A DNA stretch of 64,000 nt from Candidatus Marinacidobacterium sp. (GTDB lineage Bacteria > Acidobacteriota > Vicinamibacteria > Marinacidobacterales > Marinacidobacteraceae). The stretch is taken from contig OZ242011.1 in NCBI GenBank assembly GCA_965204755.1, positions 1,632,001-1,696,000 of the forward strand, in the 5' to 3' direction. Numbering within the stretch: position 1 is the stretch's first letter; each line of letters opens with the position of its first letter. This document shows positions 19,039 through 33,036 of the stretch, piece by piece. The notes beneath the pieces were generated by a model, which did no database searches, was not told where the DNA came from, and was given only the letters and a program-made list of their open reading frames with translations. Both the position numbers and the translations under genes were made by a program.

Positions 19039-19326
19039 TTCCCGCGGGCGGCGGCGCCTCGCCGTCCGACCCCGCCGGCGCCCCCGCCGAAGGGGTGACG
19101 GTTTTCGTCGTGGCCCTTACCGAGGGTTCCCGGCGGCTTCGAAGCGCTCGACGCCGGCGATGTCGAGCGCGCCGGCCATTCCCCGGCCGGCGGAATGGAA
19201 ATCCTGCGGACTCGGCAGACGGTCTCCGGGCAACGCGCCGCCGACCCGGCTCGACTCGAGGAAGATTCGGCGACGCCCGAGGAACCGCGCCACCTGCGGC
19301 GCAAAGGAAACGATCCAATACGCGTC

Positions 19327-22302
19327 ATGAACGAGAACGACACCGCGCTCGCCCGCGGCTACCTGTCGAACGCGATCCGTTCGGCCTTCAGTAACGACAA
19401 ACGCGCCATCGCCCTGGCCAAGTGGCTCCGCCGCTACGACGACGAACTGGAAGAAGACGGAATCGCCGACCTGCGGGCGCTGTGCGAGGCGCACCAGGAA
19501 TCCGCGGAGCAGGAATCCGAGCCGAAGGACGAGCCCCCGACGACCCTCTGGCGGCCTTCCGGCCCCGAGGCGCCTCTCGGCGAGGCGGCGAGGGCCCGAC
19601 ACCTGCTGTCCCGGGCGGACGCCGCGCTTCGAGCGGAGTCCGACGGCGCGTCGACCGACGAACACTTCCGGAACAGCCCGACGGCCCGGGCGGCCTCCCT
19701 GTTCGCCTCCCGCCTCGGCCTCGGCCCGGCGGCGGCCGCGGTGCTGCACCTGGGCCACCTGTATGTCGAGTGGAGCGCGGTCGAACACCTCTACGACCAC
19801 CTCCACGAAACGCGAAAGGACATGGCGGCCACCAGCGCGACGCTCCTCGGCGTCCGCCGGCGGGAAGTCACCGACGCGTTGCTCGCGCTGCTGGAGTTCG
19901 GCTTCGGCGACCGCAGTTACTGGTACTCGGACCGCGGCCTCGGGTCGTTCGCGAACGACATCGAAGCCATCTGGCAGCCTCCGGTACGGAACGACGCGGA
20001 ATTGCTGGAGCGCCTCGTGGGGCGTCCGTCCGAGCCTTCCCTCGATCTCGACGACTTCCCCCACCTGGACGCGCGGGACGACGCGGTCCGCCTCCTCGCC
20101 GGCGCGCTGCGGCAGTCCACGCCGGGCGTGAACATCCTGCTCCACGGACGCGCCGGGACCGGCAAGACCGAGTTCGCCAAGACGCTGGCCGCCGCGGCGG
20201 GAGGCCGCCTCTATTCCACCGGCGAGCCGGAGGCCGAAGGCGAATCCCGAGGCGGCAACCCGGGCATCGACCGGCGCAACGATCTCCGCCGGGCCGACCG
20301 CCTGCTCTGGACCGAAGGCGACGCCGTCCTCCTCTGCGACGAACTCGACGAGGTCTTCGACGCCGGCGAAAAGGGTTCCCGCGTGTCGCGGCTCCGCCTG
20401 CTGGAAGACAACCGCACGCCGACCATCTACACCGCGAACCGGATCGGCGACCTCGACGAAGCGGTCCTCCGCCGCTTCATGCTGATCGCGCGCTTCACCG
20501 CGCTTTCGCCCGGCCGCCGGACGGACATGAACCGCCGGATCCTGGCGGGCGCCGACCTTCCGAAAGTCGCCGACGCCGATGCGCTGGCGGCGCGCCTGTC
20601 CGACGAACTCGAAGCCGCGCCCGGAGTGCTGGCGCAGGCGATCCGGGTCACCGGCCTCACCGGGGGCGGGGACGACGAACTCTTCCGCCACGCCGAACGC
20701 ATCGAGCGCGCGATCTCCCGCAACCGGGCCCGCCCGCGGCTCGGCCCGCCGGTCGGGGCGAAACACCCGTGGTCGGCCTTCGCCCACCTCGGCAAGCACG
20801 CCCGGGATGTGCGCGACTCGCTGGCGGCCGCGGTCTTCGGCGGTGAAGACGGCGCCGGTTCCGGCGCCCGGGCGGAGCGCCGAACGGGCGTCAACCTGCT
20901 CTTCTACGGGCCTCCCGGCACCGGCAAGACCGAATTCGCGCGGACGCTCTGCGCCGAGATCGGCGCGCGGCTCTATTCCGTCGGCGAAAAGGAGTTCGGC
21001 CCCGACGCCCGCGCCGCCGCGGATCGCTTCGACAGTCTGGAGTACGCGCTCGAAGCGCTCGCCGACGAGCCGGGAACCGCGCTCCTCTTCGACGAGATGG
21101 AGGACCTGCCCGCGCTCATGCCCAAGCAGTGGCTGAACGGCGTGCTCGAAGCGAACCCGGTCCCCATCCTCTGGGCGGCCAACTCCACCGACTACTACCG
21201 GGAGGTCGAGCCGTTCTTCCTCGACCGGATGCTGCACGCCCTCGAGTTCCGCGCGGTTCCCGCCGTCCGGCGGAAGAAGATCTACGACCGCATCCTTTCG
21301 CGGCGCGGTCTCGCCGAGGAAGCGTCCGCGCAACTGGCCGGCGAGTTCGCCCGGATGCCCGATGTGACGCCGCGCCAGGTGACGCTCGCGTCCTCGTGGG
21401 CCGCGGTCCGCGACGGCGACGCCGACGGGATCCGTCGAAACCTCGCCCGGAAGCGCCGCCTCCGCCGCGGCGCCGCTCCGGCCGCGCCGCCTTCGCCGTC
21501 CCGCTACGACGCGAAACTCCTGCGCGCCGACTGCGACCTGGTGGAACTCGCCGACCGGATCGTGGCCGGCGGCCCCCGGCGCATGGGTCTGCTGTTCTCC
21601 GGGCCTCCCGGCGCCGGCAAGACCGCTTTCGTCCGCCACCTCGCGGAGCGCTGGGAGCGCGAGACGCTTTCCCGCCGCGCCTCCGACCTGCTCGGCCGGT
21701 ATGTCGGCGACAACGAGCGCAACCTCGCCCGCGCCTTCGAGGAAGCCCGCGACCTCGACGCGATCCTGGTGCTGGACGAGGCGGACTCCCTGCTCGCCGA
21801 CCGCCGGGGCGCCGACACGCACTGGCAGGTCGGACTGGTGAACGAACTCCTGAGCCAGATGGAGTCGCATCCGCTCCCCTTCGCCTGCACCACGAACCTC
21901 TCGGACGCGCTCGATCCGGCGTCGCTGCGGCGCTTCCTGTTCCGCGCGAAGTTCCGCTTCCTCGACGGCCCGCGCATCGCCCGCGCCTTCCGCCTGTTCT
22001 TCGACGCCGACGCTTCCCCCGAGGTGCGCGGCCTCCCCGGTCTCACCCCGGCGGACTTCGCGCTCGTCCGCGAACGCGCCGCGGTGCTGGACTTCCTCGA
22101 CGACGCCGACCGCATCACCGAGGAACTGCGCAAGGAGTCCGCCGTCAAGGAGCCCCGCCTCCCCCGCGCCGTCGGTTTCGCTCCGGTCGGCGACGGGAAG
22201 GACGCCGACCGCCCCGCCGCGCCCCGGACCGCGCCCCGGCCCGCGCCGCCGGCGCCGAGTCCCTGCCGGAAACGCGAACGCTCCCCCCGGAGTCCGCGAT
22301 GA
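19327..22302 (+). CDS. AAA+ ATPase with three tandem AAA modules
   Basis: Walker A: GRAGTGKT, GPPGTGKT, GPPGAGKT. Walker B: LLCDE, LLFDE, LVLDE. SRH: LDEAVLRRF and LDPASLRRF. Start inferred. Confidence 0.88.
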   Translation: MNENDTALARGYLSNAIRSAFSNDKRAIALAKWLRRYDDELEEDGIADLRALCEAHQESAEQESEPKDEPPTTLWRPSGPEAPLGEAARARHLLSRADAALRAESDGASTDEHFRNSPTARAASLFASRLGLGPAAAAVLHLGHLYVEWSAVEHLYDHLHETRKDMAATSATLLGVRRREVTDALLALLEFGFGDRSYWYSDRGLGSFANDIEAIWQPPVRNDAELLERLVGRPSEPSLDLDDFPHLDARDDAVRLLAGALRQSTPGVNILLHGRAGTGKTEFAKTLAAAAGGRLYSTGEPEAEGESRGGNPGIDRRNDLRRADRLLWTEGDAVLLCDELDEVFDAGEKGSRVSRLRLLEDNRTPTIYTANRIGDLDEAVLRRFMLIARFTALSPGRRTDMNRRILAGADLPKVADADALAARLSDELEAAPGVLAQAIRVTGLTGGGDDELFRHAERIERAISRNRARPRLGPPVGAKHPWSAFAHLGKHARDVRDSLAAAVFGGEDGAGSGARAERRTGVNLLFYGPPGTGKTEFARTLCAEIGARLYSVGEKEFGPDARAAADRFDSLEYALEALADEPGTALLFDEMEDLPALMPKQWLNGVLEANPVPILWAANSTDYYREVEPFFLDRMLHALEFRAVPAVRRKKIYDRILSRRGLAEEASAQLAGEFARMPDVTPRQVTLASSWAAVRDGDADGIRRNLARKRRLRRGAAPAAPPSPSRYDAKLLRADCDLVELADRIVAGGPRRMGLLFSGPPGAGKTAFVRHLAERWERETLSRRASDLLGRYVGDNERNLARAFEEARDLDAILVLDEADSLLADRRGADTHWQVGLVNELLSQMESHPLPFACTTNLSDALDPASLRRFLFRAKFRFLDGPRIARAFRLFFDADASPEVRGLPGLTPADFALVRERAAVLDFLDDADRITEELRKESAVKEPRLPRAVGFAPVGDGKDADRPAAPRTAPRPAPPAPSPCRKRERSPRSPR

Positions 22303-25300
22303 GGGTTCCCGACGGGTTGCTGGAGTCCGTCGTCGGTCTCGCCGCCGCGAGCGCCGGGAAGACCGGGCTACGCGCCGCCGTAAGCCGCGCGGCGATCGCC
22401 GGCCTGACCGCGGTCGGCCTTCCGTCGCGCCTGAGGGACCGGTACGGGGATACCGCGCTGTACCGCGCGGTCGATGCGAACCGGTCCCCGGAGACGCTGT
22501 CGGCGTTGCTCGCGGCCGGAGTGCCGGCGAACGCGCCCGAGGGGAGACGGGAAACGCCGCTGCATCGCGCGGCCAAGGACAACGCCGGGCCCGCCGTATT
22601 CGAAGTCCTGCTCCGGGCCGGAGCGGAGGTCGGCGCGACGGAGTGGGGCTCCGTGACGCCCCTCCACGACGCGGCGGCCCACTGTTCGGATCCGGCCGTC
22701 ATCGGGATCCTGCTGGCGGCGGGCGCGAAGGTCGATGCGAAGAGCCAGGAAGGGTTTCCGCTGCATCGGGCTGCCGGGAAGAACCCGAATCCCGCCGTCG
22801 TCGAGGCGCTGCTCGCCGCGGGTGCGGAGGTCAACGCGAAAAGTTGGAGGGAGAGGCCCCTGCATCGGGCAGCGGCGGACAACCCGAATCCCGCCGTCGT
22901 CGAGGCGCTGCTCGCCGCGGGTGCGGAGGTCAACGCGAAGAGTCGGAGGGGGACGCCTCTGCATCGGGCGGCGGCGGACAACCCGAATCCCGCCGTCATC
23001 GAGACGCTGCTCGCCGCCGGCGCGGAGGTCAACGCCACGCGCCGGGGAGAGACGCCTCTGCATCGGGCGGCCGCGCACAACCCGAATGCCGAGGTGATCG
23101 AAGTCCTCCTGGCGGCGGGAGCCGATACCGGCGCCCGCAGTGAGTACGGCCGAAACACGCCGCTCCATGAAGCCGCCGTCCACGGTCAGGACCTCGCCGT
23201 CATCGAGGCCCTCGTCGCCGGCGGCGCCGACCTCGACGCGACCGACGGTTTCGGACAGACGCCCCTGCACCGCTCCGCGTCGAGCGGTTCGCCGGAGGTG
23301 ATCGAGGCGCTCGTCGCCGCCGGCGCCGCCGTCGACTCCCGCGACCGCCTGGGGTGGACGCCGCTGCACACCGCGGCCTACGACAACTTCAACGCCGGAG
23401 TCGCGGAGATCCTCCTCAAGGCCGGCAGCGATCCGGAGGCCGGGGACCGGCGCGGCAGAACCCCGCTTCACCTGGCGGCCATGATCCGCCGTCCGCCGGC
23501 CTTGCCCTGCGCCCAAAGCGTGATACCCCGTCGCAAGGCGGTGAAGAACGCCCTCCTGGCCGCCGGCGCGGACACCGACGCGCGGGACAACGCCGACCGG
23601 CGCCCGTTCGACCGGAAGTCCGTAGAGCAGGAGATCCACCCCCCACGCGGGGAACGCGCGGACCGGACGCTGGTCGTCGGCGAATCGCAGGTCGCGGCGA
23701 TCGCGTTCGACGCTCCGGTCCGCGTGGAAGTGACGAACATCTCCGGATCCGTCGCCGTCGAGCCGTACCGCCGCCGCGGCGTCTTCCGCATCGTCGGCCG
23801 GAAACCCGGGCGCTCGGTCGTTCACTTCTTTCGAGGGGGCTGCTGGGGATCCGGCGAGTCGGCGGATGAGCCGGGCTCCCTGAGCGGTATCCGGCATACC
23901 CTCGGCAGTCGCTTCGGGCGGCGGCCGCGGTACGCGTTCACCTTGTCCTTCGAGGTGGTCTCGCCGCTCCTCGCGGCCGCCCGGAGGGATCCGAACCCGG
24001 AGGTCATCGCCGGACTGGTGGCCGCCGGGGAAGATCTGCGCGCATCCGACGAGCGCGGAAGGACGCTGCTCGACCTCGCCATCTCACGCGGGGGCGGAGC
24101 GCCGGGGGCGGTGGACGCGCTGCTCGACGCCGGCGTCGACGCCACTTGGACCAAGTTCGAGAACATGCCGCTGCACCGCGCCGCCCGCTACTCCACCCGG
24201 CCGGAAATCATCCGGTCACTCGTCTCCGCCGGCGCCGAAGTCGGCGCTCGCTGGCCGATCGTCAGCAAACACAACGAAACGCCGCTGCACTTCGCCGCCA
24301 GGCACAACCCGAACCCCGCGGTCATCGAGGAGTTGGCGGCGGCCGGGGCGAAGGTCGGGGCGCGCGCTCGGAACAAACGGACGCCGCTCCACCTCGCGGC
24401 GTCGCGGAACCCGAATCCGCAGGTCCTCCGGGCGCTCGCCAACCGGGGCGCGAAACTCGACGCCCGCGACCACCGGCGGCGGACGGCGCTGCGCCTCGCC
24501 GTCCTCCGCCGCGCGGAACCCGGAGTCCTCGCCGAGTTGCTGGCGGCGGGCGCCGACCCGAACGCCCGCGACGAGGACGGACGGACAGCGCTGCACCTCG
24601 CGGTTTCCCCGCCGCCGGAGGACGCGCGCTTCCCGCTGCCGGACGGCGAACGAATCCGGGAGACCGTCGGGATTCTCCTGCGCGCCGGCGCGGCCGTCGA
24701 CGCCCGGGACACGGGCGGCCGGTCGCCGCTCCACGACGCCGCGCGGGGTTCGCAGGATTCCCCGAGTTCAGCAGTCGGGATCGAGACGCTCGTGGATGCC
24801 GGCGCCGGCTTGGAGGATCGCGACCGCCACGGGCGCGCGCCGCTCCACCTGGCGGCGGCATACGGTTCGACGGCGCCCGTCGAAGCGCTCCTCCGCGCCG
24901 GCGCGGACCCGAATCGGCGCGACGACGGCGGCGAAACCGCGCTCCACGCCCTTGCCGCGCGGTGCGACGCGACGGCAGACGCCTTCGAGGCGCTCCTCGA
25001 CGCCGGCGGCCGGCGCGACCTCCGGAATCACCGGGGCGAAACCCCGGCCGAGCGCGGCGCGCTCCATCGGAACACGGCGGTCTTCGGGGCGCTTCACCCG
25101 GCGGCGGCGCTTCGAGACGCGGCGGCCGTAGAGGAGGCGAGGCGCTGGATCCGGCGCCACGCCAAACGATTGGGGCATTCTCGCGCCTTCTGCTCGAAGC
25201 GCCTCGGCGCCTGCGACGGGGTCATCCGGCCCCGACCGCTCGAAATCGTCCGAAGCGGCGAAGAGATTTCGCCCGAGGCCCGTCGACTGCTGGACGGTAT

Positions 25301-25787
25301 CGCCTGCCGCTGCGCCGGGCATCCGGCGGTGGGGAAGCGTTTCCTCAAGAAGGTCTGGATCTTCGAGCGGGTTCCTCCGCCGCCGGTCTTCCCTCCGCGC
25401 GGGCCGGCGCGAGATCCGATCTACCGGGGCGAGGAGGTCTTCTACGGACTGCGAAGCGGCCCCGCCGCGCGGCAGGCGATCCGCTGGCTCGACCGTCACG
25501 CGGAAGGTCTGCGGAGGCAGCCGTTCTTCTCGGGCCTTTCGTTCTCCGCGCGGGGGCCGGTGATGGCCCCGGACCTCTCGACCGTCGTCGAGCGTTGGGG
25601 CTTGTCCGATCCCTGGGAGGGGCTGACTTACCGGAGCCGGGAACTCCTCAAGCGTCTCCCGCGTCGGCGCGACGACCAGGTGTGGCCCCGTTTCGTGAGG
25701 ATCGCGAGGGTGTACCAGCGGACGAGCGTGGAGTTCTCCCGCAGCATGGCGGGGTCTTCGAGTCCGGATCGGGGAACGGCCCGATGA
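22299..25787 (+). CDS. Large ankyrin-repeat protein (~21 repeats) with an inserted beta domain and duplicated C-terminal domain
   Basis: Repeated TPLH.AA..N.NP.V.E.LLAAGA.VNA units. ATGA overlap with the AAA gene stop. Confidence 0.9.
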   Translation: MRVPDGLLESVVGLAAASAGKTGLRAAVSRAAIAGLTAVGLPSRLRDRYGDTALYRAVDANRSPETLSALLAAGVPANAPEGRRETPLHRAAKDNAGPAVFEVLLRAGAEVGATEWGSVTPLHDAAAHCSDPAVIGILLAAGAKVDAKSQEGFPLHRAAGKNPNPAVVEALLAAGAEVNAKSWRERPLHRAAADNPNPAVVEALLAAGAEVNAKSRRGTPLHRAAADNPNPAVIETLLAAGAEVNATRRGETPLHRAAAHNPNAEVIEVLLAAGADTGARSEYGRNTPLHEAAVHGQDLAVIEALVAGGADLDATDGFGQTPLHRSASSGSPEVIEALVAAGAAVDSRDRLGWTPLHTAAYDNFNAGVAEILLKAGSDPEAGDRRGRTPLHLAAMIRRPPALPCAQSVIPRRKAVKNALLAAGADTDARDNADRRPFDRKSVEQEIHPPRGERADRTLVVGESQVAAIAFDAPVRVEVTNISGSVAVEPYRRRGVFRIVGRKPGRSVVHFFRGGCWGSGESADEPGSLSGIRHTLGSRFGRRPRYAFTLSFEVVSPLLAAARRDPNPEVIAGLVAAGEDLRASDERGRTLLDLAISRGGGAPGAVDALLDAGVDATWTKFENMPLHRAARYSTRPEIIRSLVSAGAEVGARWPIVSKHNETPLHFAARHNPNPAVIEELAAAGAKVGARARNKRTPLHLAASRNPNPQVLRALANRGAKLDARDHRRRTALRLAVLRRAEPGVLAELLAAGADPNARDEDGRTALHLAVSPPPEDARFPLPDGERIRETVGILLRAGAAVDARDTGGRSPLHDAARGSQDSPSSAVGIETLVDAGAGLEDRDRHGRAPLHLAAAYGSTAPVEALLRAGADPNRRDDGGETALHALAARCDATADAFEALLDAGGRRDLRNHRGETPAERGALHRNTAVFGALHPAAALRDAAAVEEARRWIRRHAKRLGHSRAFCSKRLGACDGVIRPRPLEIVRSGEEISPEARRLLDGIACRCAGHPAVGKRFLKKVWIFERVPPPPVFPPRGPARDPIYRGEEVFYGLRSGPAARQAIRWLDRHAEGLRRQPFFSGLSFSARGPVMAPDLSTVVERWGLSDPWEGLTYRSRELLKRLPRRRDDQVWPRFVRIARVYQRTSVEFSRSMAGSSSPDRGTAR
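22761..23110 (+). repeat. Four 99-bp coding tandem repeats (recent ankyrin expansion)
   Basis: CTGCATCGGG recurs at 22761, 22860, 22959 and 23058 with near-identical intervening DNA. Confidence 0.9.
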
Positions 25788-26413
25788 CCTGGCTGCTGCT
25801 TCCGCTCGCTTTCGCCGCCGGAATGGCGCTCCGCCTGTGGTTGCTCCACCGGTGGGCGGAAGGCGCGCTGCGACACGAGTCCTTCTCCGAGGCCGTGTTC
25901 CAGCGTTGGCGGGGACGACCCATGGGAATGGTGTTCTCCGTGGCTTCGGGTTTCGCCGAGGAGAAGGAATTCGGCGTCCTGCTGGACGAGGTCCGCGAGA
26001 CCGTTCGCCTCTCGTCGGGTTCCCGACCGGATGAGAGGATCGGCGAGGAGATCGGCTCGTTGCTGCGCCTCCGGAGAATCGTCGAGGAGGCGATCTCGCC
26101 GAAGGGCGTCGAGGACGGAAGCCGCGGACCGCGCGCCGTGGAACTCGGCGACTCGCGGTCGGCCCTGCTGCTGCCGATCTACGCGGCCGCCCTGCCGCTG
26201 GTCGGGATCGCCATGGCCGGCGTTTGGATCTTCGCCCATGTGATGCCCACTTCCTGGATCGCCGGAAGGCTGGAGAAGAACTACGGCATCGACGCCTCGA
26301 AGGTCGTGGGTCAGGTCGGAGGCGTCACCCTCATGTTGGCCGACGACGACGACGAAGACGAAGCGGAAGAAGACGAGGACGAAGAGACGCCGGCCCCGGA
26401 GGACGACCGATGA
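25784..26413 (+). CDS. Hypothetical membrane protein with acidic C-terminal tail
   Basis: ATGA overlap. N-terminal TM MTWLLLPLAFAAGMALRLWLLHR, second TM LLLPIYAAALPLVGIAMAGVWIF, tail DDDDEDEAEEDEDEE. Confidence 0.75.
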   Translation: MTWLLLPLAFAAGMALRLWLLHRWAEGALRHESFSEAVFQRWRGRPMGMVFSVASGFAEEKEFGVLLDEVRETVRLSSGSRPDERIGEEIGSLLRLRRIVEEAISPKGVEDGSRGPRAVELGDSRSALLLPIYAAALPLVGIAMAGVWIFAHVMPTSWIAGRLEKNYGIDASKVVGQVGGVTLMLADDDDEDEAEEDEDEETPAPEDDR

Positions 26414-26709
26414 TCTGGTTCGCGCTTCCGGTGGCGTTCCTCCTGGGAATGGACTGTTGCCGGTGGCTCCTTCACCGCCGGGTGGGGCTGCGGTTGCGCG
26501 CCGCCGCCTCTTCCGGGGGCGCCGCCGCCGACGGAGGCTTCGCCGCGGCGTTCTGCGACCGCCTCGCCGCCGCCGGGCTCGTCGAGGACATCTCCGCCGT
26601 CGCGGGACTCAGGAATCGCGAAGGACGCGCCGAGAGGATCCGCGCCCTGCGCCGCTTCGAGGAGAACTCGAAGACCGATCGCGGGCCGGGCGCCCCGACG
26701 ACTCCGTAG
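26410..26709 (+). CDS. Small hypothetical membrane protein, N-terminus paralogous to the previous gene
   Basis: ATGA overlap. MIWFALPVAFLLGMDCCRWLLHRR. Confidence 0.65.
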   Translation: MIWFALPVAFLLGMDCCRWLLHRRVGLRLRAAASSGGAAADGGFAAAFCDRLAAAGLVEDISAVAGLRNREGRAERIRALRRFEENSKTDRGPGAPTTP

Positions 26710-26740
26710 CGGCGGGCGCCCCGTTCAGGCCGCCCGCCGC
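26709..26740. terminator. GC hairpin between convergent genes
   Basis: GCGGCGGGCG...CGCCCGCCGC 10-bp stem. No U-tract. Confidence 0.4.
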
Positions 26741-26747
26741 GGCGGGT

Positions 26748-27269
26748 TCACCGCGGGCGGGTCGAGCGGTCGGCCCGATCGCGGAGCGGGTATCGCCGGC
26801 GATACCCGGCCATGGCGATTCCCGCGGCGACGCTCACATTCAGGGAGTTGAACATCCACCTCATGGGGATGTGGGCGAAGGAACCGCACACGGCGCGGGC
26901 CTCCGGGGACAACTCCCGCTCCGAACCCAGGACCAGGGCGGCTTTCTCCGGGAGGTCGAATACCGTCGGGCAGTCCGGGTTCGGGTCGAGGCCGATGACC
27001 TGCCAACCCTTCTCCTTCAGGGAGACCAGGTCCGCCAGGAGGCGGTCACTCGTCTCCACCGGATGATGGGTGAGCGCCCCGGCGGCGCACTTCCGCACGA
27101 CTTTCACGAACCTCCCGTCCCTCGAGAACAGGTCGGCCGCGGCGAGGACCCGGAAGTCGAAAGCGGCGGCGGACCGAAGGATGGCGCCCAGGTTGCCGGG
27201 CTGGCGAATCTCGGGCACGACGAGGATCGGATCCTCCGGTCGGTCGGGCGTCGAAAGGTGCGGGGCCAT
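26748..27269 (-). CDS. TrmH/SpoU family RNA methyltransferase (catalytic domain)
   Basis: PGNLGAILRSA, LVLGSE, HIPM...SLNVSVAAGI. Start uncertain. Confidence 0.85.
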   Translation of the reverse strand: MAPHLSTPDRPEDPILVVPEIRQPGNLGAILRSAAAFDFRVLAAADLFSRDGRFVKVVRKCAAGALTHHPVETSDRLLADLVSLKEKGWQVIGLDPNPDCPTVFDLPEKAALVLGSERELSPEARAVCGSFAHIPMRWMFNSLNVSVAAGIAMAGYRRRYPLRDRADRSTRPR

Positions 27270-27492
27270 CTGCGAGACCGAAGACCGTACGGTCGAACCC
27301 CGCCCGCGGGCGGTTCCTTCACCGGAAGCGCCGGCTCGTTCATCGGACGGATATCGAGGCGGGAAGAACACCCGGCGTTCGCCCCGGAAGAGGACGACGA
27401 AGACCCTCTTCGGTGAACGGACGGGGGCGTCCCGTTGGTTTCCTCGGTATCCGCGTCGAGAGGCGGCAGAATCGCTCGCCCGGGAAAAACCA

Positions 27493-27855
27493 ATGACTTC
27501 CGAACTCACGACCATCGGCCGCCTCCGACGATTCTTCGTCCGGATGTTCGGATTCCAGGAGGTGCTCGAACTCGTCGGCCCGCGCTGCCCTCGGTGCTAC
27601 TCGATCGATCCGGATCACGCCGCGCACGGGGATGGCGACACCGAATGGTGGAAGTGTCGGCGGTGCCGCCATCGGTTCAGCGGCCCGGTAGGCCCGTGCT
27701 GGATGGGAGAAGAAAACCTCGGCCCGCGCTGCCCCGAATGTTTCGCTGCCGATCCGTTTCACTGGGTGAACGGGACCGACTGGACTTGCGAGAAATGCGG
27801 CCACAACTGGGATGAAGGCCCGACTCTGGACGCGTTTCTCCGACCCGACAGTTGA
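27493..27855 (+). CDS. Small protein with two tandem zinc ribbons
   Basis: GPRCPRC...WKCRRC and GPRCPEC...WTCEKC. Confidence 0.7.
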   Translation: MTSELTTIGRLRRFFVRMFGFQEVLELVGPRCPRCYSIDPDHAAHGDGDTEWWKCRRCRHRFSGPVGPCWMGEENLGPRCPECFAADPFHWVNGTDWTCEKCGHNWDEGPTLDAFLRPDS

Positions 27856-27914
27856 CCGGGTGTCGTTCTCCGGAAATCCGGAAACGAAGTCTGCGTTACC
27901 CGCTCCGGGCGCAC

Positions 27915-28364
27915 CTATACACGATTCGCGCCACCTATACACAATACGGGGCAGCTATACACAATTCCCGTCAGCTATACACAATTCCCGTCAGCTATAC
28001 ACAATTCCAGTCAGCTATACACAATTCCCCTCGGCTATACACAATTCGGCGGCAGCTATACACAATTCCGCGCCGGCTATACACAATTCGCTCGCACCTA
28101 TACACAATTCCGCGTCGGCCATACCCGGTCGATCCTGTCCGTAAACGATCCGCCACTTCACCCTCAGGGCTCGTTTTCGGCCTTACGAGCCCCCGGAGGC
28201 GACATCCATGGGCGCACTTCGGTCGCCGGCGAGTACTTGCGCAGGGTTGCGCGCCGCGCCGCCGCGCCGCGCCCGACCGAACCCGGCCACCTATACACAA
28301 TTCCCGATGCAGCTATACACAATTCGCGCCGGCTATACACAATTCGGGCAGCTATACACAATTC
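27915..28364. repeat. Phased direct-repeat array, 14 x CTATACACAATT in two clusters (10 + 4)
   Basis: Copies at 27915, 27935, 27955, 27975, 27995, 28015, 28035, 28056, 28077, 28098, then 28291, 28313, 28333, 28352. Variable GC-rich spacers of 7-10 bp. Confidence 0.95.
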
Positions 28365-28471
28365 GCGCCGGCCTTCGCGGCGCCGAACGAGCCACTCCCG
28401 TCGCGTGGAAGAACGCTCGGCGCTCGCGCCGGACGACCGGCGGTCGGGCGCGTCGAGCCGGACCTGGATCG

Positions 28472-29140
28472 TCAGAGTATCGCGCCCCGGTATCCACACC
28501 CCATCCGCAACTTGAGGAGCAGTACCGTGCGACCGCCCGTGTCGACTTCCAACCCGTTCGGGTCGTCGAAGTCTTCTTCGAAGATCAAGCCGTTGGGGTC
28601 GGACAAGACCACGGCCGCATGGTCGGGGGTTCCCGCCAAGTTGGCCTGGACGAGTTCCGCCGGGTGGGTTCGATACCACGCCTCCTCGTCTTCAACGAGG
28701 AGGTTGAAGCGATTCAACCACAGGCAATCGAAGCGATACGCCGGTTCTTCGGCGCGGAAGGGAGTGAACACCAAGGCGCCGCAGGCCCCAAGGCTCCTTC
28801 GCTGGTTCCGACCCGGAGTCGTCTCGTTCACCGAGTCCAGTGCCCTTTTGAACCTGGACAACAGGTCGGGGCAGGCCCCGCCCCGTTCCTCGATTTCCGG
28901 GAAGATGCTCCACCTCTCCCGATTCTTTCCGAAGGACTTGATGTGGCGGATCGACTCGTCCCGAAAATCGTGGAGCCAGGAGCACTTCGCAGCGTCCGTC
29001 ACCGGCAGGAGGAGGCGATGCGTGTACTCCTCTCCCGTATACCGGATGATCTCGTCGGGGCGGAATCGAGGAACGAACGAAAGGCGATCGATTCCGTCGC
29101 GCCTGGGGTTGCGCGTGAAGACGGTGTCCAGGTGGATCAT
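28472..29140 (-). CDS. Hypothetical protein
   Basis: 222-aa ATG ORF with protein-like composition. No family recognised. Confidence 0.6.
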   Translation of the reverse strand: MIHLDTVFTRNPRRDGIDRLSFVPRFRPDEIIRYTGEEYTHRLLLPVTDAAKCSWLHDFRDESIRHIKSFGKNRERWSIFPEIEERGGACPDLLSRFKRALDSVNETTPGRNQRRSLGACGALVFTPFRAEEPAYRFDCLWLNRFNLLVEDEEAWYRTHPAELVQANLAGTPDHAAVVLSDPNGLIFEEDFDDPNGLEVDTGGRTVLLLKLRMGCGYRGAIL

Positions 29141-29227
29141 GCGGGGACCTGCTCTGCGGTTTCGCTCGAGAGGGATCGAGGACGGGATGTCCTTCCCGGC
29201 CCCGGCGGCGTTGGTGTCGGTGGAGAG

Positions 29228-29304
29228 TGGTAGGCCCGACTGGACTTGAACCAGCGCCCTCCGGTTTATCAGACCGGCGATCTAACCTGCTGATCTACGG
29301 GCCT
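29228..29304 (-). tRNA. tRNA-Ile: tRNA-Ile (GAT)
   Basis: AGGCCCG TA GATC AGCAGGTTA GATC G CCGGT CT GAT AA ACCGG AGGGC GCTGG TTCAAGT CCAGT CGGGCCT A CCA forms a full cloverleaf with encoded CCA. Confidence 0.95.
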
Positions 29305-29413
29305 GACCGGAGACGGTAGCCCCGAATCCCGCCGGCGGGGGCGCGGTTCATCGGACGCGCCGGTTCGTTAATCGAAATGGATCGAGAGGGGATCGGCCCC
29401 CGGCTCGCTTCGC

Positions 29414-30595
29414 TCAGCCGGGAGGACGGAGGGGCAGGGCCGCGACGCGGGCGAGCGGGAGCGCGGTGATCCGGTCGCCCAGCGGATACTCGGCGTCCCC
29501 CGGATACACGACGAACAGGTGTTCGAGGTCGAGGTCCTTCGCCACCACATGCATGGACTTCGTGGTCTTCGGGGCGTCGGTGCACTGGAACTCGAAACCC
29601 CACCGGCGTCCGCGGCGAAACAGCAGCAGGTCGAGTTCCGCGCCGCGCTGCGTCCGGTAGTAGAACGCCCGGCGTTCGCCGTGGGCGGCCAGCGTCTGTT
29701 CGAGCGCGAACCCTTCCCAACTGGCGCCGTACCGCGGGTGGAGCGCCAGTTCCGCGAAGTCCTCGATCTCCAGCAGGTGGTGGAGGATGCCGCTGTCGCG
29801 GAAGTAAGTCTTCGGGGACTTCACCAGCCGCTTGCCCAGGTTCTCGAACCACGGCGGCAGCACCCGGAGCAGGAACGCGCCGGCGAGCAGGTCGCGGTAC
29901 CGATTCACGGCGGCCGGACGCGAGTCCACCGACCGGGCGAGTTCCGCCGCGTTCCAGGTCCGGCCGTGGTAGTGCGCCAGCATCCTCCACAGCCGCGAGA
30001 GCGCCGGCGCGGGCGGCGCGCCGGCGAGCAGCGGCAAGTCCCGCTCCACGAAGGTCGCGGTGAAGGTGTCCATCCACCGGGTCCAGGCGTCGTAGGAGTC
30101 CGCCAGGAAGGCGCGCGGGAAACCGCCCCGGAGCCAGAGACGCGTCAGCCGTTCGGGCCCCACTTCGCCGAGCGAAAGTCCACCGAGATTCACGAACAGG
30201 ATGCGTCCGGCGAGGCTCTCGGAAACCCCCCGCACGAGATCCGGCGAAGCGCTGCCGAGGACCAGGAACACCGCCCGGCGATCCGGATCGTCACAGACCG
30301 GGCGCAGCACCTCGAAGAGCGCCGGCAGCCGCTGGATCTCGTCGAGGACGACCAGCCCCTCCTGCTCTCGCAGGAGGCGGTCGGGGGTCGCGGTCAGCGC
30401 CTCGCGGTCGGCCGGACGCTCCAAGTCGAAGCGCGTCGTCGGGCCGTCCCAAGTCGCCGCGATTTCTCGCGCCAGCGTCGTCTTCCCCACCTGGCGCGCC
30501 CCGAGGAGCGCGGCCACCGGGCTCTCCGAGAGCGCCTGTCTCGTCGCGTCGAAGGGGGCCTCGCGACGGATCCGGTCGGATCGAGGTTGTTGCAT
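29414..30595 (-). CDS. AAA_14 ATPase + DUF4143 (PD-(D/E)XK-like) protein
   Basis: GARQVGKT, LDEIQ, LGSAS, ESLAGR, GGFP, KRLVKSPK.YFRDSG, ELDLL. Confidence 0.9.
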   Translation of the reverse strand: MQQPRSDRIRREAPFDATRQALSESPVAALLGARQVGKTTLAREIAATWDGPTTRFDLERPADREALTATPDRLLREQEGLVVLDEIQRLPALFEVLRPVCDDPDRRAVFLVLGSASPDLVRGVSESLAGRILFVNLGGLSLGEVGPERLTRLWLRGGFPRAFLADSYDAWTRWMDTFTATFVERDLPLLAGAPPAPALSRLWRMLAHYHGRTWNAAELARSVDSRPAAVNRYRDLLAGAFLLRVLPPWFENLGKRLVKSPKTYFRDSGILHHLLEIEDFAELALHPRYGASWEGFALEQTLAAHGERRAFYYRTQRGAELDLLLFRRGRRWGFEFQCTDAPKTTKSMHVVAKDLDLEHLFVVYPGDAEYPLGDRITALPLARVAALPLRPPG

Positions 30596-30688: not shown

Positions 30689-32290
30689 CTACGGCGCGGG
30701 AGGAGGCGCGGAGTCGGCGGCGGGGGCGGGCTCGTCCACCCGGACGCCGCGCTGCGAACCCCGGGCGACGGCGATCCCGGCGGCCCACTTCTCCTCGTCG
30801 GTGCGCTCCTCCACGGTAGGCACATGGAACCAGTCGTTCTGCACCCGGTCGCGCCGCACATCCAGCACGCAGTAACCCCGGTGGTATCCCTCCCCGAACT
30901 TCATGTGCGGGTTCGCCGCCAACTGGTCCTCCACCGCCTGCGCCACCGCCGCTTCCGTTTCCAGCCGCCGCAGGAAGGAACTCGGCGAAGAGATCGCGGT
31001 CGTGACGAAGTCCACGCCGTACGACCCGGCGCCGGTATCCCGGTCGTAACCCGACAGCGGCGACCGCGGGAGGTCCATACCCCAGGACTGGTGGACATCG
31101 CCGGTCAGCACCACCAGGTCCCCGATGCGCTCGCGCTCCAGGAAGTCGAACAGCCGGTCGCGGCTCGCCCGGTAACCGTCCCACTGGTCCGGGTTCATCG
31201 GGCGCCCGTGTTCGTCCAGCATCGGCCCCATCATCACCTGCTGGCCGAGCACCGGCCAACGAACGCCGGCGGCCTTCAGGCCGGCGAGTTCGCCGTAGAG
31301 CCACCGCTCCTGTTCCGGCCCGAGCAGCGTCCGCGACGGGTGCGCCATCGCTTCCGTGTCACCCCACGCCGCCTGCCGCGACCGCCCGATCAGGCGCGTG
31401 TCGAGCATGATGAGGTCGAGGAGGCGGCCGAAGCGGAAACTGCGGTAAGTGCGCTGGCTCGGCCAGGGCTCCGGTTCGCGGATCGGCATCCACTCGAAGT
31501 AGGCGCGGACGGCGGCTTCGCGCCGGACGAACCAGTCGCCTTCTTCTTCCTCGACCTGGTGGTTCTGCGCGCCGTCGGTGTAGGCGTTGTTGGTGATCTC
31601 GTGGTCGTCCCAGACGCAGACGAACGGATGCTGCCGGTGGAGTTCCTGCAGGTCGGGGTCGGCCTTGTACTGGGCGTGCCGCGTCCGGTAGTCGGAGAGC
31701 GTGACGATCTCCCGGTTCGGCGTCGGGACCCGGTCGAAACGGCTGCCGTCGCCGTAGTCGCGGTTCGTGTACTCGTAGAGGTAGTCGCCGAGATGCAGCA
31801 CCGCGTCGAGGTCGTTGCGCTCGGCGATGCGCCGGTAGGCGTTGAAGTAGCCGAAGGGGAGGTTGGAACAGGAGGCGAACGCGAACCGCGCCTGTTCCGG
31901 GTCGCTCGGGAGCGTGCGCGTCCGCCCGACCGGGGAGCGCTCGCCGCCCGCCTCGAACCGGTAGTAGTAAACGGCGCCCGGCCGGAGTCCGGCGGCGACC
32001 GCCTTCACGGTGTAGTCCCGATGCGGCCCGGTGGCGGCGATCCCTTCCGCCACGATCTCCCGCATCCCCGGGTCCCGCGCCGCCTGCCAGGAGCAGGGCA
32101 CGCTGTCGCGGCCTTCCTGCCCGGAGACGCGCGTCCACAGGAGCACCCGGTCGGTGAGCGGGTCGCCGCTCGCCACCCCGTGCGCGAAGACGCTCGACTG
32201 GCCGAGCAGGGGGAACGGGCGGGCGAACGGCAGCGCGAGCCCGGTTCGCGCCGCCGCGCCCAAGAACTTCCGGCGCGGTACGGTCATCAT
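30689..32290 (-). CDS. phoD: Alkaline phosphatase D, Tat-exported
   Basis: RRKFL Tat motif. FAHGVASGDP, LHLGDYLYE, WDDHE, DQWDGY, LTGDVH. Confidence 0.92.
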   Translation of the reverse strand: MMTVPRRKFLGAAARTGLALPFARPFPLLGQSSVFAHGVASGDPLTDRVLLWTRVSGQEGRDSVPCSWQAARDPGMREIVAEGIAATGPHRDYTVKAVAAGLRPGAVYYYRFEAGGERSPVGRTRTLPSDPEQARFAFASCSNLPFGYFNAYRRIAERNDLDAVLHLGDYLYEYTNRDYGDGSRFDRVPTPNREIVTLSDYRTRHAQYKADPDLQELHRQHPFVCVWDDHEITNNAYTDGAQNHQVEEEEGDWFVRREAAVRAYFEWMPIREPEPWPSQRTYRSFRFGRLLDLIMLDTRLIGRSRQAAWGDTEAMAHPSRTLLGPEQERWLYGELAGLKAAGVRWPVLGQQVMMGPMLDEHGRPMNPDQWDGYRASRDRLFDFLERERIGDLVVLTGDVHQSWGMDLPRSPLSGYDRDTGAGSYGVDFVTTAISSPSSFLRRLETEAAVAQAVEDQLAANPHMKFGEGYHRGYCVLDVRRDRVQNDWFHVPTVEERTDEEKWAAGIAVARGSQRGVRVDEPAPAADSAPPPAP

Positions 32291-32343
32291 GGGCGCAACT
32301 CTACGCGTTCCGGGTTTTTCCGCGCGAGCGGCGGCGTCGAGGG

Positions 32344-33036
32344 CTATTCGCCGCGGCGGTTCGGCCCGATCTCGATCTCGGTGACATGGAGGCTGAGCCC
32401 GGCGCCGGCGCGGATCCCGATCACCCCGTCGAGCGGCAGCCGTTCCGCCGGCAGCGCCGCCATCCGGTCGCCGTTGACGAGGAACACCACTTCGTCCGCC
32501 CGCGCGTCCACCGCCAGCACATTCTCGACCGGCCCCGCCGCATCCTCGGCGAGGGTGGCGATCCCCTCGTGCTCGGTCCACGGCGCCAGGTCGCGGCTGT
32601 CGCCGCCGGAATGCTCGGCGACGCGGAACCGCCCGGCGCTGTCGATCTGGAAGGAGACGAACACCGGCGCGTCCCCTTCGAGATCCCGCCCGGCAAGGAA
32701 GAGCCCGAACGGCGCATCGAGCCGCGCGGAACCGGACTCTTCCGGGTCCCCCTCCGGGAACAGGTAGATCGTGCTGCTGACCGAGTAGTTCCCCGACGCG
32801 AAACTCCCCGGATCCCAGAACACGCCGCCGGGCCCGGCGAACACATGCCACCCCGGCCGCATCACCACGAACCGCCGCTCCTCGGTCGTCTGCGCGTCGT
32901 CGTACCGCACCTTCCAGTGCGCGGGGCGTTCCAAGTTGTGTCCCGACTGCGCGGTGGCGAGTCTTGAAGCGTTGACAAGAGACAACACCGCTATCGCCAC
33001 ACCGGTCAACACGACGGAGCGGTTGGAGAACGACAT
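32344..33036 (-). CDS. Secreted hypothetical protein (beta-rich)
   Basis: Signal-like N-terminus. M.PGWHV..GPG motif, FLVNG. Confidence 0.7.
   Translation of the reverse strand: MSFSNRSVVLTGVAIAVLSLVNASRLATAQSGHNLERPAHWKVRYDDAQTTEERRFVVMRPGWHVFAGPGGVFWDPGSFASGNYSVSSTIYLFPEGDPEESGSARLDAPFGLFLAGRDLEGDAPVFVSFQIDSAGRFRVAEHSGGDSRDLAPWTEHEGIATLAEDAAGPVENVLAVDARADEVVFLVNGDRMAALPAERLPLDGVIGIRAGAGLSLHVTEIEIGPNRRGE

Follow-up and report, generated by a model that had tools for sequence, protein, structure and literature searches.

An accessory tRNA-Ile(GAU) with an AGCT-free A11:U24 D-stem on a lineage-specific segment of an AGCT- and ACGT-depleted Candidatus Marinacidobacterium genome

Avoidance of restriction sites (short palindromes) is established for phages and plasmids (PMC6286503, PMC10359461) and is also seen in some genomes, AGCT-free pandoraviruses being on record (bioRxiv 10.1101/712018); the feature shared with the present case is the near-elimination of a 4-bp palindrome from a replicon. 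Accessory tRNA genes on islands, phages and plasmids form a second kind of system, being extra, divergent, lineage-specific and redundant with a native isoacceptor. Here we describe a tRNA-Ile(GAU) gene with likenesses to both, located at 29228-29304 on the minus strand of a 64,000-nt stretch of the Candidatus Marinacidobacterium sp. genome (the window). The genome has been purged of AGCT and ACGT, and the gene is a second, island-borne copy in which an A11:U24 pair takes the place of the AGCT-bearing C11:G24 of the D-stem. While the published works on avoidance deal with site counts, mostly in coding DNA, the present case concerns the D-stem of a tRNA, and a limited literature search found no report of restriction-site avoidance reshaping tRNA D-stems. 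Unlike the usual tRNA-bearing islands, the segment in question has no integrase, phage gene or plasmid/conjugation gene recognised with PHROGs, Pfam or NCBIfam, and it carries a single tRNA rather than an array. We favor, tentatively and at chances approaching but not reaching even, the reading that the AGCT-free stem of this accessory tRNA is a product of motif avoidance.

The pair itself is best known from initiation. In the portions of PMC1635315 and PMC4611024 that treat it, A11:U24 is an initiator hallmark that discriminates fMet among the CAU tRNAs and a secondary determinant for the formylase. Bacterial initiator tRNA-fMet, including that of the present genome, thus shares the pair with our gene, which otherwise lacks the initiator features of a CAU anticodon, an unpaired 1x72 and the G29-G31:C39-C41 run. 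Because of its GAU anticodon, its paired A1:U72 and an anticodon stem (CCGGU/ACCGG) without that G:C run, the gene reads as an elongator tRNA and not as an initiator.

The second tRNA-Ile(GAU) and its D-stem

ARAGORN called one tRNA in the window, the tRNA-Ile(GAU) above, with an encoded CCA and its anticodon at 29268-29270. The Rfam tRNA model RF00005 matched it at 70.7 bits (cut-off 29) over model positions 1-71, the 7th highest score among the 45 Rfam tRNA matches of the genome. In RNA sense the gene reads AGGCCCG-UA-GAUC-AGCAGGUUA-GAUC-G-CCGGU-CUGAUAA-ACCGG-AGGGC-GCUGG-UUCAAGU-CCAGU-CGGGCCU-ACCA, with ...GUAGAUCAGCAGGUUAGAUCG... as its D-arm region. Reading the sequence with fixed-offset numbering, both the 5' strand of the D-stem (nucleotides 10-13, window 29292-29295) and its 3' strand (nucleotides 22-25, window 29279-29282) are GAUC, which places A11 at window base 29294 and U24 at 29280; all four pairs (G10:C25, A11:U24, U12:A23 and C13:G22) are formed in the minimum-free-energy (MFE) fold. 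Compared with the usual GCUC/GAGC, the stem has undergone a C-to-A and a G-to-U transversion, with pairing kept and AGCT gone. The original prediction, made from the letters alone, had described the D-stem in just these terms, and ARAGORN, Rfam, the sequence and the MFE fold agree with it.

The remainder of the molecule is well preserved: none of its four stems is disrupted, the conserved loop positions are retained, and tertiary positions U8, A14 and G18G19 as well as the GGUUCAAGUCC T-arm are as usual. Based on the list of bacterial isoleucyl-tRNA synthetase (IleRS) determinants in Table 1 and the Isoleucine identity section of PMC9976931, which includes U12-A23, the determinants A73, C4-G69 and U12-A23 are all present. 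Those parts of the source also name N6-threonylcarbamoyladenosine at position 37 (t6A37) as a determinant for bacterial-type IleRS, and the anticodon loop CUGAUAA presents the GAU anticodon with A37 and A38. The minor determinants C29-G41 and G16 are absent, with G29-C41 and C16 instead; the native tRNA-Ile(GAU) likewise has C16 but has kept C29-G41. The A11:U24 pair also departs from the Y11:R24 typical of elongators. Judged by these sequence features, the tRNA is probably functional and would decode AUC and AUU alongside the native copy of the rRNA operon. Neither a sigma-70-like promoter nor an intrinsic terminator was found near the gene, with a consensus that may not fit this organism, and the public runs listed for the stretch include no RNA run.

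That native copy (C1:2268065-2268142 of the genome, designated G000) reads TAGCTCAG and is followed by tRNA-Ala(UGC), the two lying between the 16S and 23S genes, of which Rfam found one each, in a single rRNA operon. The window itself contains no rRNA, and the original prediction was correct that the gene stands alone outside a 16S-23S spacer, the canonical tRNA-Ile in the spacer being ~606 kb away. Since the two tRNA-Ile genes agree at 56 of 77 positions and no native tRNA exceeds 57 of 77, the gene is an extra copy and not a recent duplicate.

The gene lies just inside one border of a 7.3-kb segment (22089-29423) in which guanine plus cytosine (GC) drops to 62-70%, 110 nt from the conserved flank. 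In tblastx and blastn synteny, this segment has no counterpart in G001, a genome of the same genus, which has 377 bp in its place and is collinear with the window over 1-22088 and from 29424 onward; no tRNA occurs in 60 kb of G001 at the syntenic region. With its repeat arrays set aside, the segment contains no AGCT (8.2 expected) and no ACGT (14.9 expected), so by composition and motif counts it would have experienced both of the avoidances seen in the host genus. It is more parsimonious that this lineage gained the segment than that G001 lost it, as its methyltransferase gene and a 222-residue open reading frame (ORF) are without orthologues in relatives. Nor is the segment an assembly artefact: the contigs that span it come from four public runs belonging to different studies, of which one matches it exactly and the other three agree at ~98-99%. 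Of the 40 differences listed, none falls within 29228-29304; 378 further differences lie beyond those listed.

Searches for kin of the gene yielded little. A BLAST search of 40 relatives with the 77-nt sequence returned no orthologue, the best matches (72-79% identity) being tRNA-Arg(CCU) and CAU tRNAs; viral contigs gave no match, and matches in phages and plasmids reached at most ~80% identity. Two scans of the JGI metagenome collection, which used an exact 28-mer in one case and the acceptor plus D-arm in the other, gave no match each, while Logan contigs from sponge and marine runs do contain the tRNA.

Motif depletion and the native structural RNAs

The window lies in a single contig of 3,975,858 bp with 71.7% GC. 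Compared with a maximal-order Markov expectation, AGCT is found genome-wide 332 times vs. 7446 expected (observed/expected (O/E) 0.045), ACGT 265 times vs. 7147 (O/E 0.037) and CTAG 385 times vs. 2942 (O/E 0.13), while GATC, TCGA and TGCA have O/E of about 1 or above. The genome is thus ~25-fold depleted in AGCT and ACGT, with ~96% of the expected sites lost, and the depletion that the original prediction took as its background holds genome-wide. In G001, AGCT has O/E 0.15-0.18 and ACGT 0.08-0.19 (60-kb and 20-kb samples); AGCT has 0.64-1.12 in 11 further family members (20-kb samples) and 1.01-1.34 in seven genomes from other families of the order. Among the sampled genomes, AGCT depletion is limited to the genus. 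One family member, G005 (C1:300001-320000), is depleted in ACGT only (3 vs. 36.9 expected, O/E 0.08) and not in AGCT, showing that the two avoidances are separable within the family.

With respect to mechanism, AGTT/AACT and ATGT/ACAT are raised (1.5-1.7), and so are other neighbours of the two motifs, e.g. AGCA/TGCT at 2.0; a deamination signature therefore fails to separate mutation from selection. The genome encodes six PF00145 5-methylcytosine (m5C) methylases, one adjoining an EcoRII-like nuclease gene and another a Vsr mismatch endonuclease gene. PF09491 (RE_AlwI) had no match in any genome or control and is uninformative on an AluI-type nuclease. The methylase loci at C1:1048715-1049710 and 1860858-1861865 lie in 20-kb bins that are among those with 6-7 AGCT sites, and the 4-kb methylase loci L212 and L213 hold 1 and 0 AGCT sites, respectively.

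About 36% of the surviving AGCT sites fall in the tRNA genes, the rRNA operon and nine repeat arrays. In the set of 47 tRNAs (45 Rfam matches, plus Ser(GGA) and selenocysteine (SeC) from ARAGORN), TAGCTCA is kept in 19 and AGCT in 23, for a total of 27 sites; tRNA genes comprise ~0.1% of the genome yet 8% of its surviving AGCT sites (27/332). The rRNAs are at expectation (6 AGCT vs. 6.8 expected in 16S, 16 vs. 15.9 in 23S). The native tRNA-Ile, for which 26 genomes were searched and 21 had a match, is 96-99% identical within the family and 87-91% within the order, and reads TAGCTCAG in all 21. As for native D-arms that do lack AGCT, those of Gly(GCC) and Val(CAC) lack it through A10:U25, and each reads TAACTCAG in 25 of 25 relatives, non-depleted genera included (one Val(CAC) locus is from G033, a genome flagged as unpublished). 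Since native tRNAs and rRNAs keep AGCT, and AGCT-less D-arms are common to non-depleted relatives, the purge has not reshaped the native structural RNAs here. The original prediction had read the D-stem change as selection strong enough to alter a core RNA; the 19 tRNAs with TAGCTCA, the native tRNA-Ile with TAGCTCAG in this genome and in non-depleted relatives, and the undepleted rRNAs all contradict that claim, and the gene it was based on is redundant and island-borne.

Pair 11:24 is C:G in 36 of the 47 tRNAs, U:A in 6 and A:U in 3, the last being our tRNA-Ile, the initiator and Ser(GGA). Y11:R24 is found in 42 of 47 by fixed-offset numbering and in 43 after re-registering of Lys(UUU), whose G:G at 11:24 reflects a register shift caused by an ARAGORN start one 5' base too early. 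In tRNA-Gly(CCC) (C1:3426459-3426534), the fixed-offset reading TATCTCAG...GAGT would put U10 opposite U25 as a mismatch; this gene holds two AGCT sites elsewhere.

A11:U24 in other genomes and the origin of the stem

In one genome per species from 185,579 species, we scanned for the pattern TAGATCAG-N(3-8)-AGATCG-N5-CTGATAA, which is rare, being found in 40 of these genomes: 18 Legionella species, 13 Planctomycetota (Fuerstiella, Alienimonas and Planctomycetaceae metagenome-assembled genomes (MAGs)), 6 DPANN archaea, and one each of a gammaproteobacterial MAG, a Clostridium MAG and an Aeromicrobium. ARAGORN called tRNA-Ile(GAU) at all 40 loci but one, which is truncated at the end of a contig. 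In all 13 planctomycete loci and in 3 Legionella loci, the A11:U24 tRNA-Ile has beside it a tRNA-Ala(UGC) with TAGCTCA retained, which identifies this tRNA-Ile as the rRNA-spacer gene. AGCT is not depleted in these hosts (in 40-kb samples, two Legionella species have O/E 0.84 and 0.80, and a Planctomycetaceae MAG 0.71), and the DPANN, Clostridium and gammaproteobacterial carriers are rich in TAGCTCA. The spacer tRNA-Ile of the Legionella clade (e.g. L. anisa, L. steelei) and of Planctomycetaceae (Fuerstiella, Alienimonas) has the same GAUC/GAUC stem, GAU anticodon and A73 as our gene. In contrast to our accessory gene, it is native and essential, sits beside tRNA-Ala(UGC) in the rRNA operon of genomes that are not depleted, and is only 54-57/77 identical to it. 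Because the variant has become fixed in essential spacer genes of non-depleted Legionella and Planctomycetota, and also occurs in DPANN and Clostridium genomes rich in TAGCTCA, A11:U24 arises without AGCT pressure, a second respect in which the original prediction does not hold.

Within the phylum, we examined 40 hand-picked places from 301 genomes, one per genus where possible, with six places chosen for odd anticodon stems and the unpublished genomes G202, G074 and G099 left out; six of the 40 were chance matches or 3' tRNA fragments, and the other 34, complete tRNA-Ile(GAU) genes, all read TAGCTCA. AGCT-less tRNA-Ile(GAU) accordingly numbers 0 of 34 in this sample and 0 of 21 among relatives with the native copy. 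Three phylum genomes contain 3' tRNA halves fused to unrelated 5' sequence, from tRNA-Ile(GAU) at loci L251 and L252 and from a GAU-anticodon tRNA at L231. Such 3' tRNA fragments are commonly left by integrating elements.

The Aeromicrobium match offers an independent parallel. It lies on contig C3 (329,557 bp, 64% GC), of which nine 20-kb samples (180 kb) contain a single AGCT vs. ~345 expected, while three other contigs of the assembly (72% GC) have O/E 1.05-1.36; TAGCTCA occurs 53 times in the assembly, with no C3 place among the matches listed. C3, a plasmid- or phage-like replicon, carries an array of 29 tRNAs, none with AGCT, and encodes ArdC-like, FtsK/terminase-like, transposase, DNA methylase, RtcB and RNA ligase proteins. 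Its tRNA-Ile has the GAUC/GAUC stem (A11:U24) and the AGGGC variable loop of our tRNA, and, at 61 of 77 positions, ties with the tRNA-Ile in a tRNA array of the Clostridium MAG as the closest sequence found. Both the C3 tRNA-Ile and ours are accessory copies with the same D-stem on non-core, nearly AGCT-free DNA. C3 differs in its large tRNA array, in avoiding AGCT only and not ACGT, and in a host chromosome that is not depleted.

Based on these data, we surmise that an accessory second tRNA-Ile(GAU), carried on the 7.3-kb lineage-specific segment, exchanged C11:G24 for A11:U24 while its other D-stem pairs (G10:C25, U12:A23 and C13:G22) stayed, with the swap becoming fixed in redundant DNA under the same AGCT/ACGT purge that cleared the segment and the genome; the purge may have acted in this host or in a donor that avoided the same motifs. 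A mismatched intermediate would be survivable for a redundant copy but presumably not for single-copy native tRNAs and rRNAs, so that these would keep AGCT. As the motif spans A9-G10-C11-U12, a change at 11:24 would remove it with U12:A23 and G10:C25 untouched, and the standing of U12:A23 as an Ile identity element, in the parts of PMC9976931 named above, would explain why the change occurred at 11:24 rather than 12:23. Replicon and surrounding segment are both depleted (O/E 0.045; 0 vs. 8.2 expected), and 2 of ~7 independent origins of the A11:U24 stem are in nearly AGCT-free DNA, a suggestive count noticed post hoc. Several points weigh against this reading. The variant arises without AGCT pressure elsewhere, and the other structural RNA genes of this genome have not lost the motif (23 of 47 tRNAs with AGCT, rRNAs at expectation). 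The nine repeat arrays hold 70 of the 332 AGCT sites of the genome, and seven sites in the arrays of the segment itself, 0.9-1.3 kb from the tRNA, indicate that AGCT is tolerated there. No ancestor or relative was found that would set the direction and timing of the change, and the link to avoidance draws on two coincidences noticed after the fact. The molecule itself also has G29:C41 in place of the Ile determinant C29:G41; TsaD contacts C11:G24 (PMC13276492); and A11-U24 leaves the KEOPS complexes of yeast and human unable to form t6A (PMC8887486).

A rival reading is that the same accessory tRNA brought A11:U24 from some donor as a neutral compensated variant, with its lack of AGCT a coincidence; this is a real possibility, which we would put clearly below even. 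The identical stem is present in at least four non-depleted lineages (Legionella, Planctomycetaceae, DPANN archaea and the tRNA array of the Clostridium MAG), the native tRNAs are without AGCT-driven change, and the bacterial t6A synthase tolerates D-stem pair swaps, C11:G24 to U11:A24 costing ~35% of activity in the data given in part of PMC13276492. What speaks for avoidance rather than coincidence is the low base rate of AGCT-less tRNA-Ile(GAU) (0/34 and 0/21), the 2 of ~7 independent occurrences in nearly AGCT-free DNA, which looks beyond chance, and a segment free of AGCT and ACGT throughout outside its arrays. We think it unlikely that we are dealing with a relic of mobile-element cargo, decaying or unused, whose odd D-stem comes from relaxed constraint: its redundancy with the native gene, the deviation at 29:41 and the lack of a sigma-70-like promoter or intrinsic terminator found nearby would suit such a relic, but both D-stem changes are compensated, stems and conserved loop positions are all preserved, the gene outscores 38 of the 44 other tRNA matches in Rfam, and no listed difference falls in the gene across three diverged strain assemblies whose flanks differ by ~1-2% (40 listed differences). 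The idea that genome-wide selection against AGCT rewrote a core tRNA draws on the extreme AGCT/ACGT depletion and on the compensated double transversion that removes the motif. It is very improbable given that 19 of 47 tRNAs keep TAGCTCA, that 27 of the 332 AGCT sites are in tRNA genes with rRNAs undepleted, and that AGCT is retained by the native tRNA-Ile, which has 96-99% identity to those of non-depleted family relatives; moreover, the gene is not core, being a redundant copy in a segment missing from G001. Of the original interpretation, then, the core-RNA form falls, while a weaker form, limited to a dispensable copy, has some support. The position of the tRNA at the very edge of the segment also raised the possibility that it is the chromosomal attachment site (attB) used by the island, the most improbable of the explanations: the empty site in G001 is without a tRNA, the 3' end of the tRNA is not repeated in the window even with up to 3 mismatches, the borders have no flanking direct repeat >11 bp, and neither Pfam nor PHROGs revealed an integrase.

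Neighbouring features, repeat arrays and significance

The tRNA is flanked, within and beside the segment, by the following features. On the left is a conserved multi-AAA ATPase gene, syntenic with G001 (19195-22302, plus strand), and on the right a conserved, likewise syntenic AAA_14/DUF4143 ATPase gene (29414-30595, minus strand), followed by a PhoD phosphatase gene (30689-32851). A large ankyrin-repeat protein is encoded within the segment at 22300-25787 on the plus strand (Pfam Ank_2 5.4e-89, Ank 2.2e-85; 99-nt repeats), as part of the listed ORF 21129-25787, the start given here being provisional. The methyltransferase gene (26748-27515, minus strand) belongs to the SpoU family of RNA 2'-O-methyltransferases (Pfam SpoU_methylase 3.4e-25) and is RlmB/TrmH-like, below the NCBIfam equivalog cut-offs; its best match in a search of the G001 genome is only a paralogue at 33%. 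The plus-strand ORF at 27070-27855 ends in CxxC...CxxC, with only weak hints of a zinc ribbon, and its real start is probably later than listed, as its 5' part overlaps the methyltransferase gene. The 222-residue orphan ORF (28472-29140, minus strand) begins 87 nt downstream of the tRNA and is co-oriented with it. It had no family match, no usable match in the ESM Atlas and no homologue in 54 other genomes of the order, while 5.8 billion proteins contained four homologues, three of which (P0002-P0004) are 63-80% identical.

Between these two ORFs lies an iteron-like array in two parts, both on the plus strand: 27915-28110, with 10 copies of the 13-mer CTATACACAATTC at 20-21 bp spacing and 5 of the 12 AGCT sites of the window, and 28291-28364, with 4 copies in the same orientation and 2 AGCT sites. 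Nine such two-part arrays occur genome-wide, with 100 exact copies of the invariant 13-mer, the others being on C1 near 357893, 756030, 1207929, 2045498, 2895447, 2970772, 3119130 and 3494174. The copies within an array share a single orientation at a spacing of 20-21 or ~30 bp, with ~160-250 bp between the two parts, a layout that looks like an iteron or centromere-type protein-binding array. We found no copy of these arrays in 40 relatives, same genus included, and no conserved gene beside the nine arrays, for which tblastx and blastp gave mostly translated-repeat noise. A flank motif, GTCCACGAAAGCGGGG..., lies beside 4 of the 9 arrays in either orientation (C1 ~357850, ~1208400, ~2895830 and ~2970740) and may be the border of a larger repeated element; the loose end of a sponge-metagenome contig at window 28028 has the same letters.

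Core tRNAs and rRNAs that remain untouched in a genome with ~96% loss of AGCT and ACGT set a useful limit on the strength of such purges. We would extend this to a broader proposal, held at somewhat less than even chances, that AGCT avoidance reaches tRNA genes only where they are dispensable, and that accessory tRNA-Ile(GAU) copies in AGCT-purged DNA converge on A11:U24, as the one D-stem rewrite that would destroy A9-G10-C11-U12 while keeping U12:A23 and G10:C25; the stem occurs independently in the present segment and on the actinobacterial replicon C3. The natural A11:U24 elongators of Legionella and Planctomycetaceae are of interest in their own right, as the pair is held to be an initiator hallmark and 11:24 is contacted by the t6A synthase; together with an AGCT-free replicon of 29 tRNAs, they could make a systematic survey worthwhile. 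The smaller idea that remains from the original prediction is that redundant or mobile tRNA genes may be recoded against restriction-type motifs, with A11:U24 as the route for tRNA-Ile. If this is true, motif avoidance would count among the forces that shape mobile tRNA genes, one not remarked on before, and an AGCT-less D-arm would be a sign that a tRNA has lived on restriction-exposed DNA.

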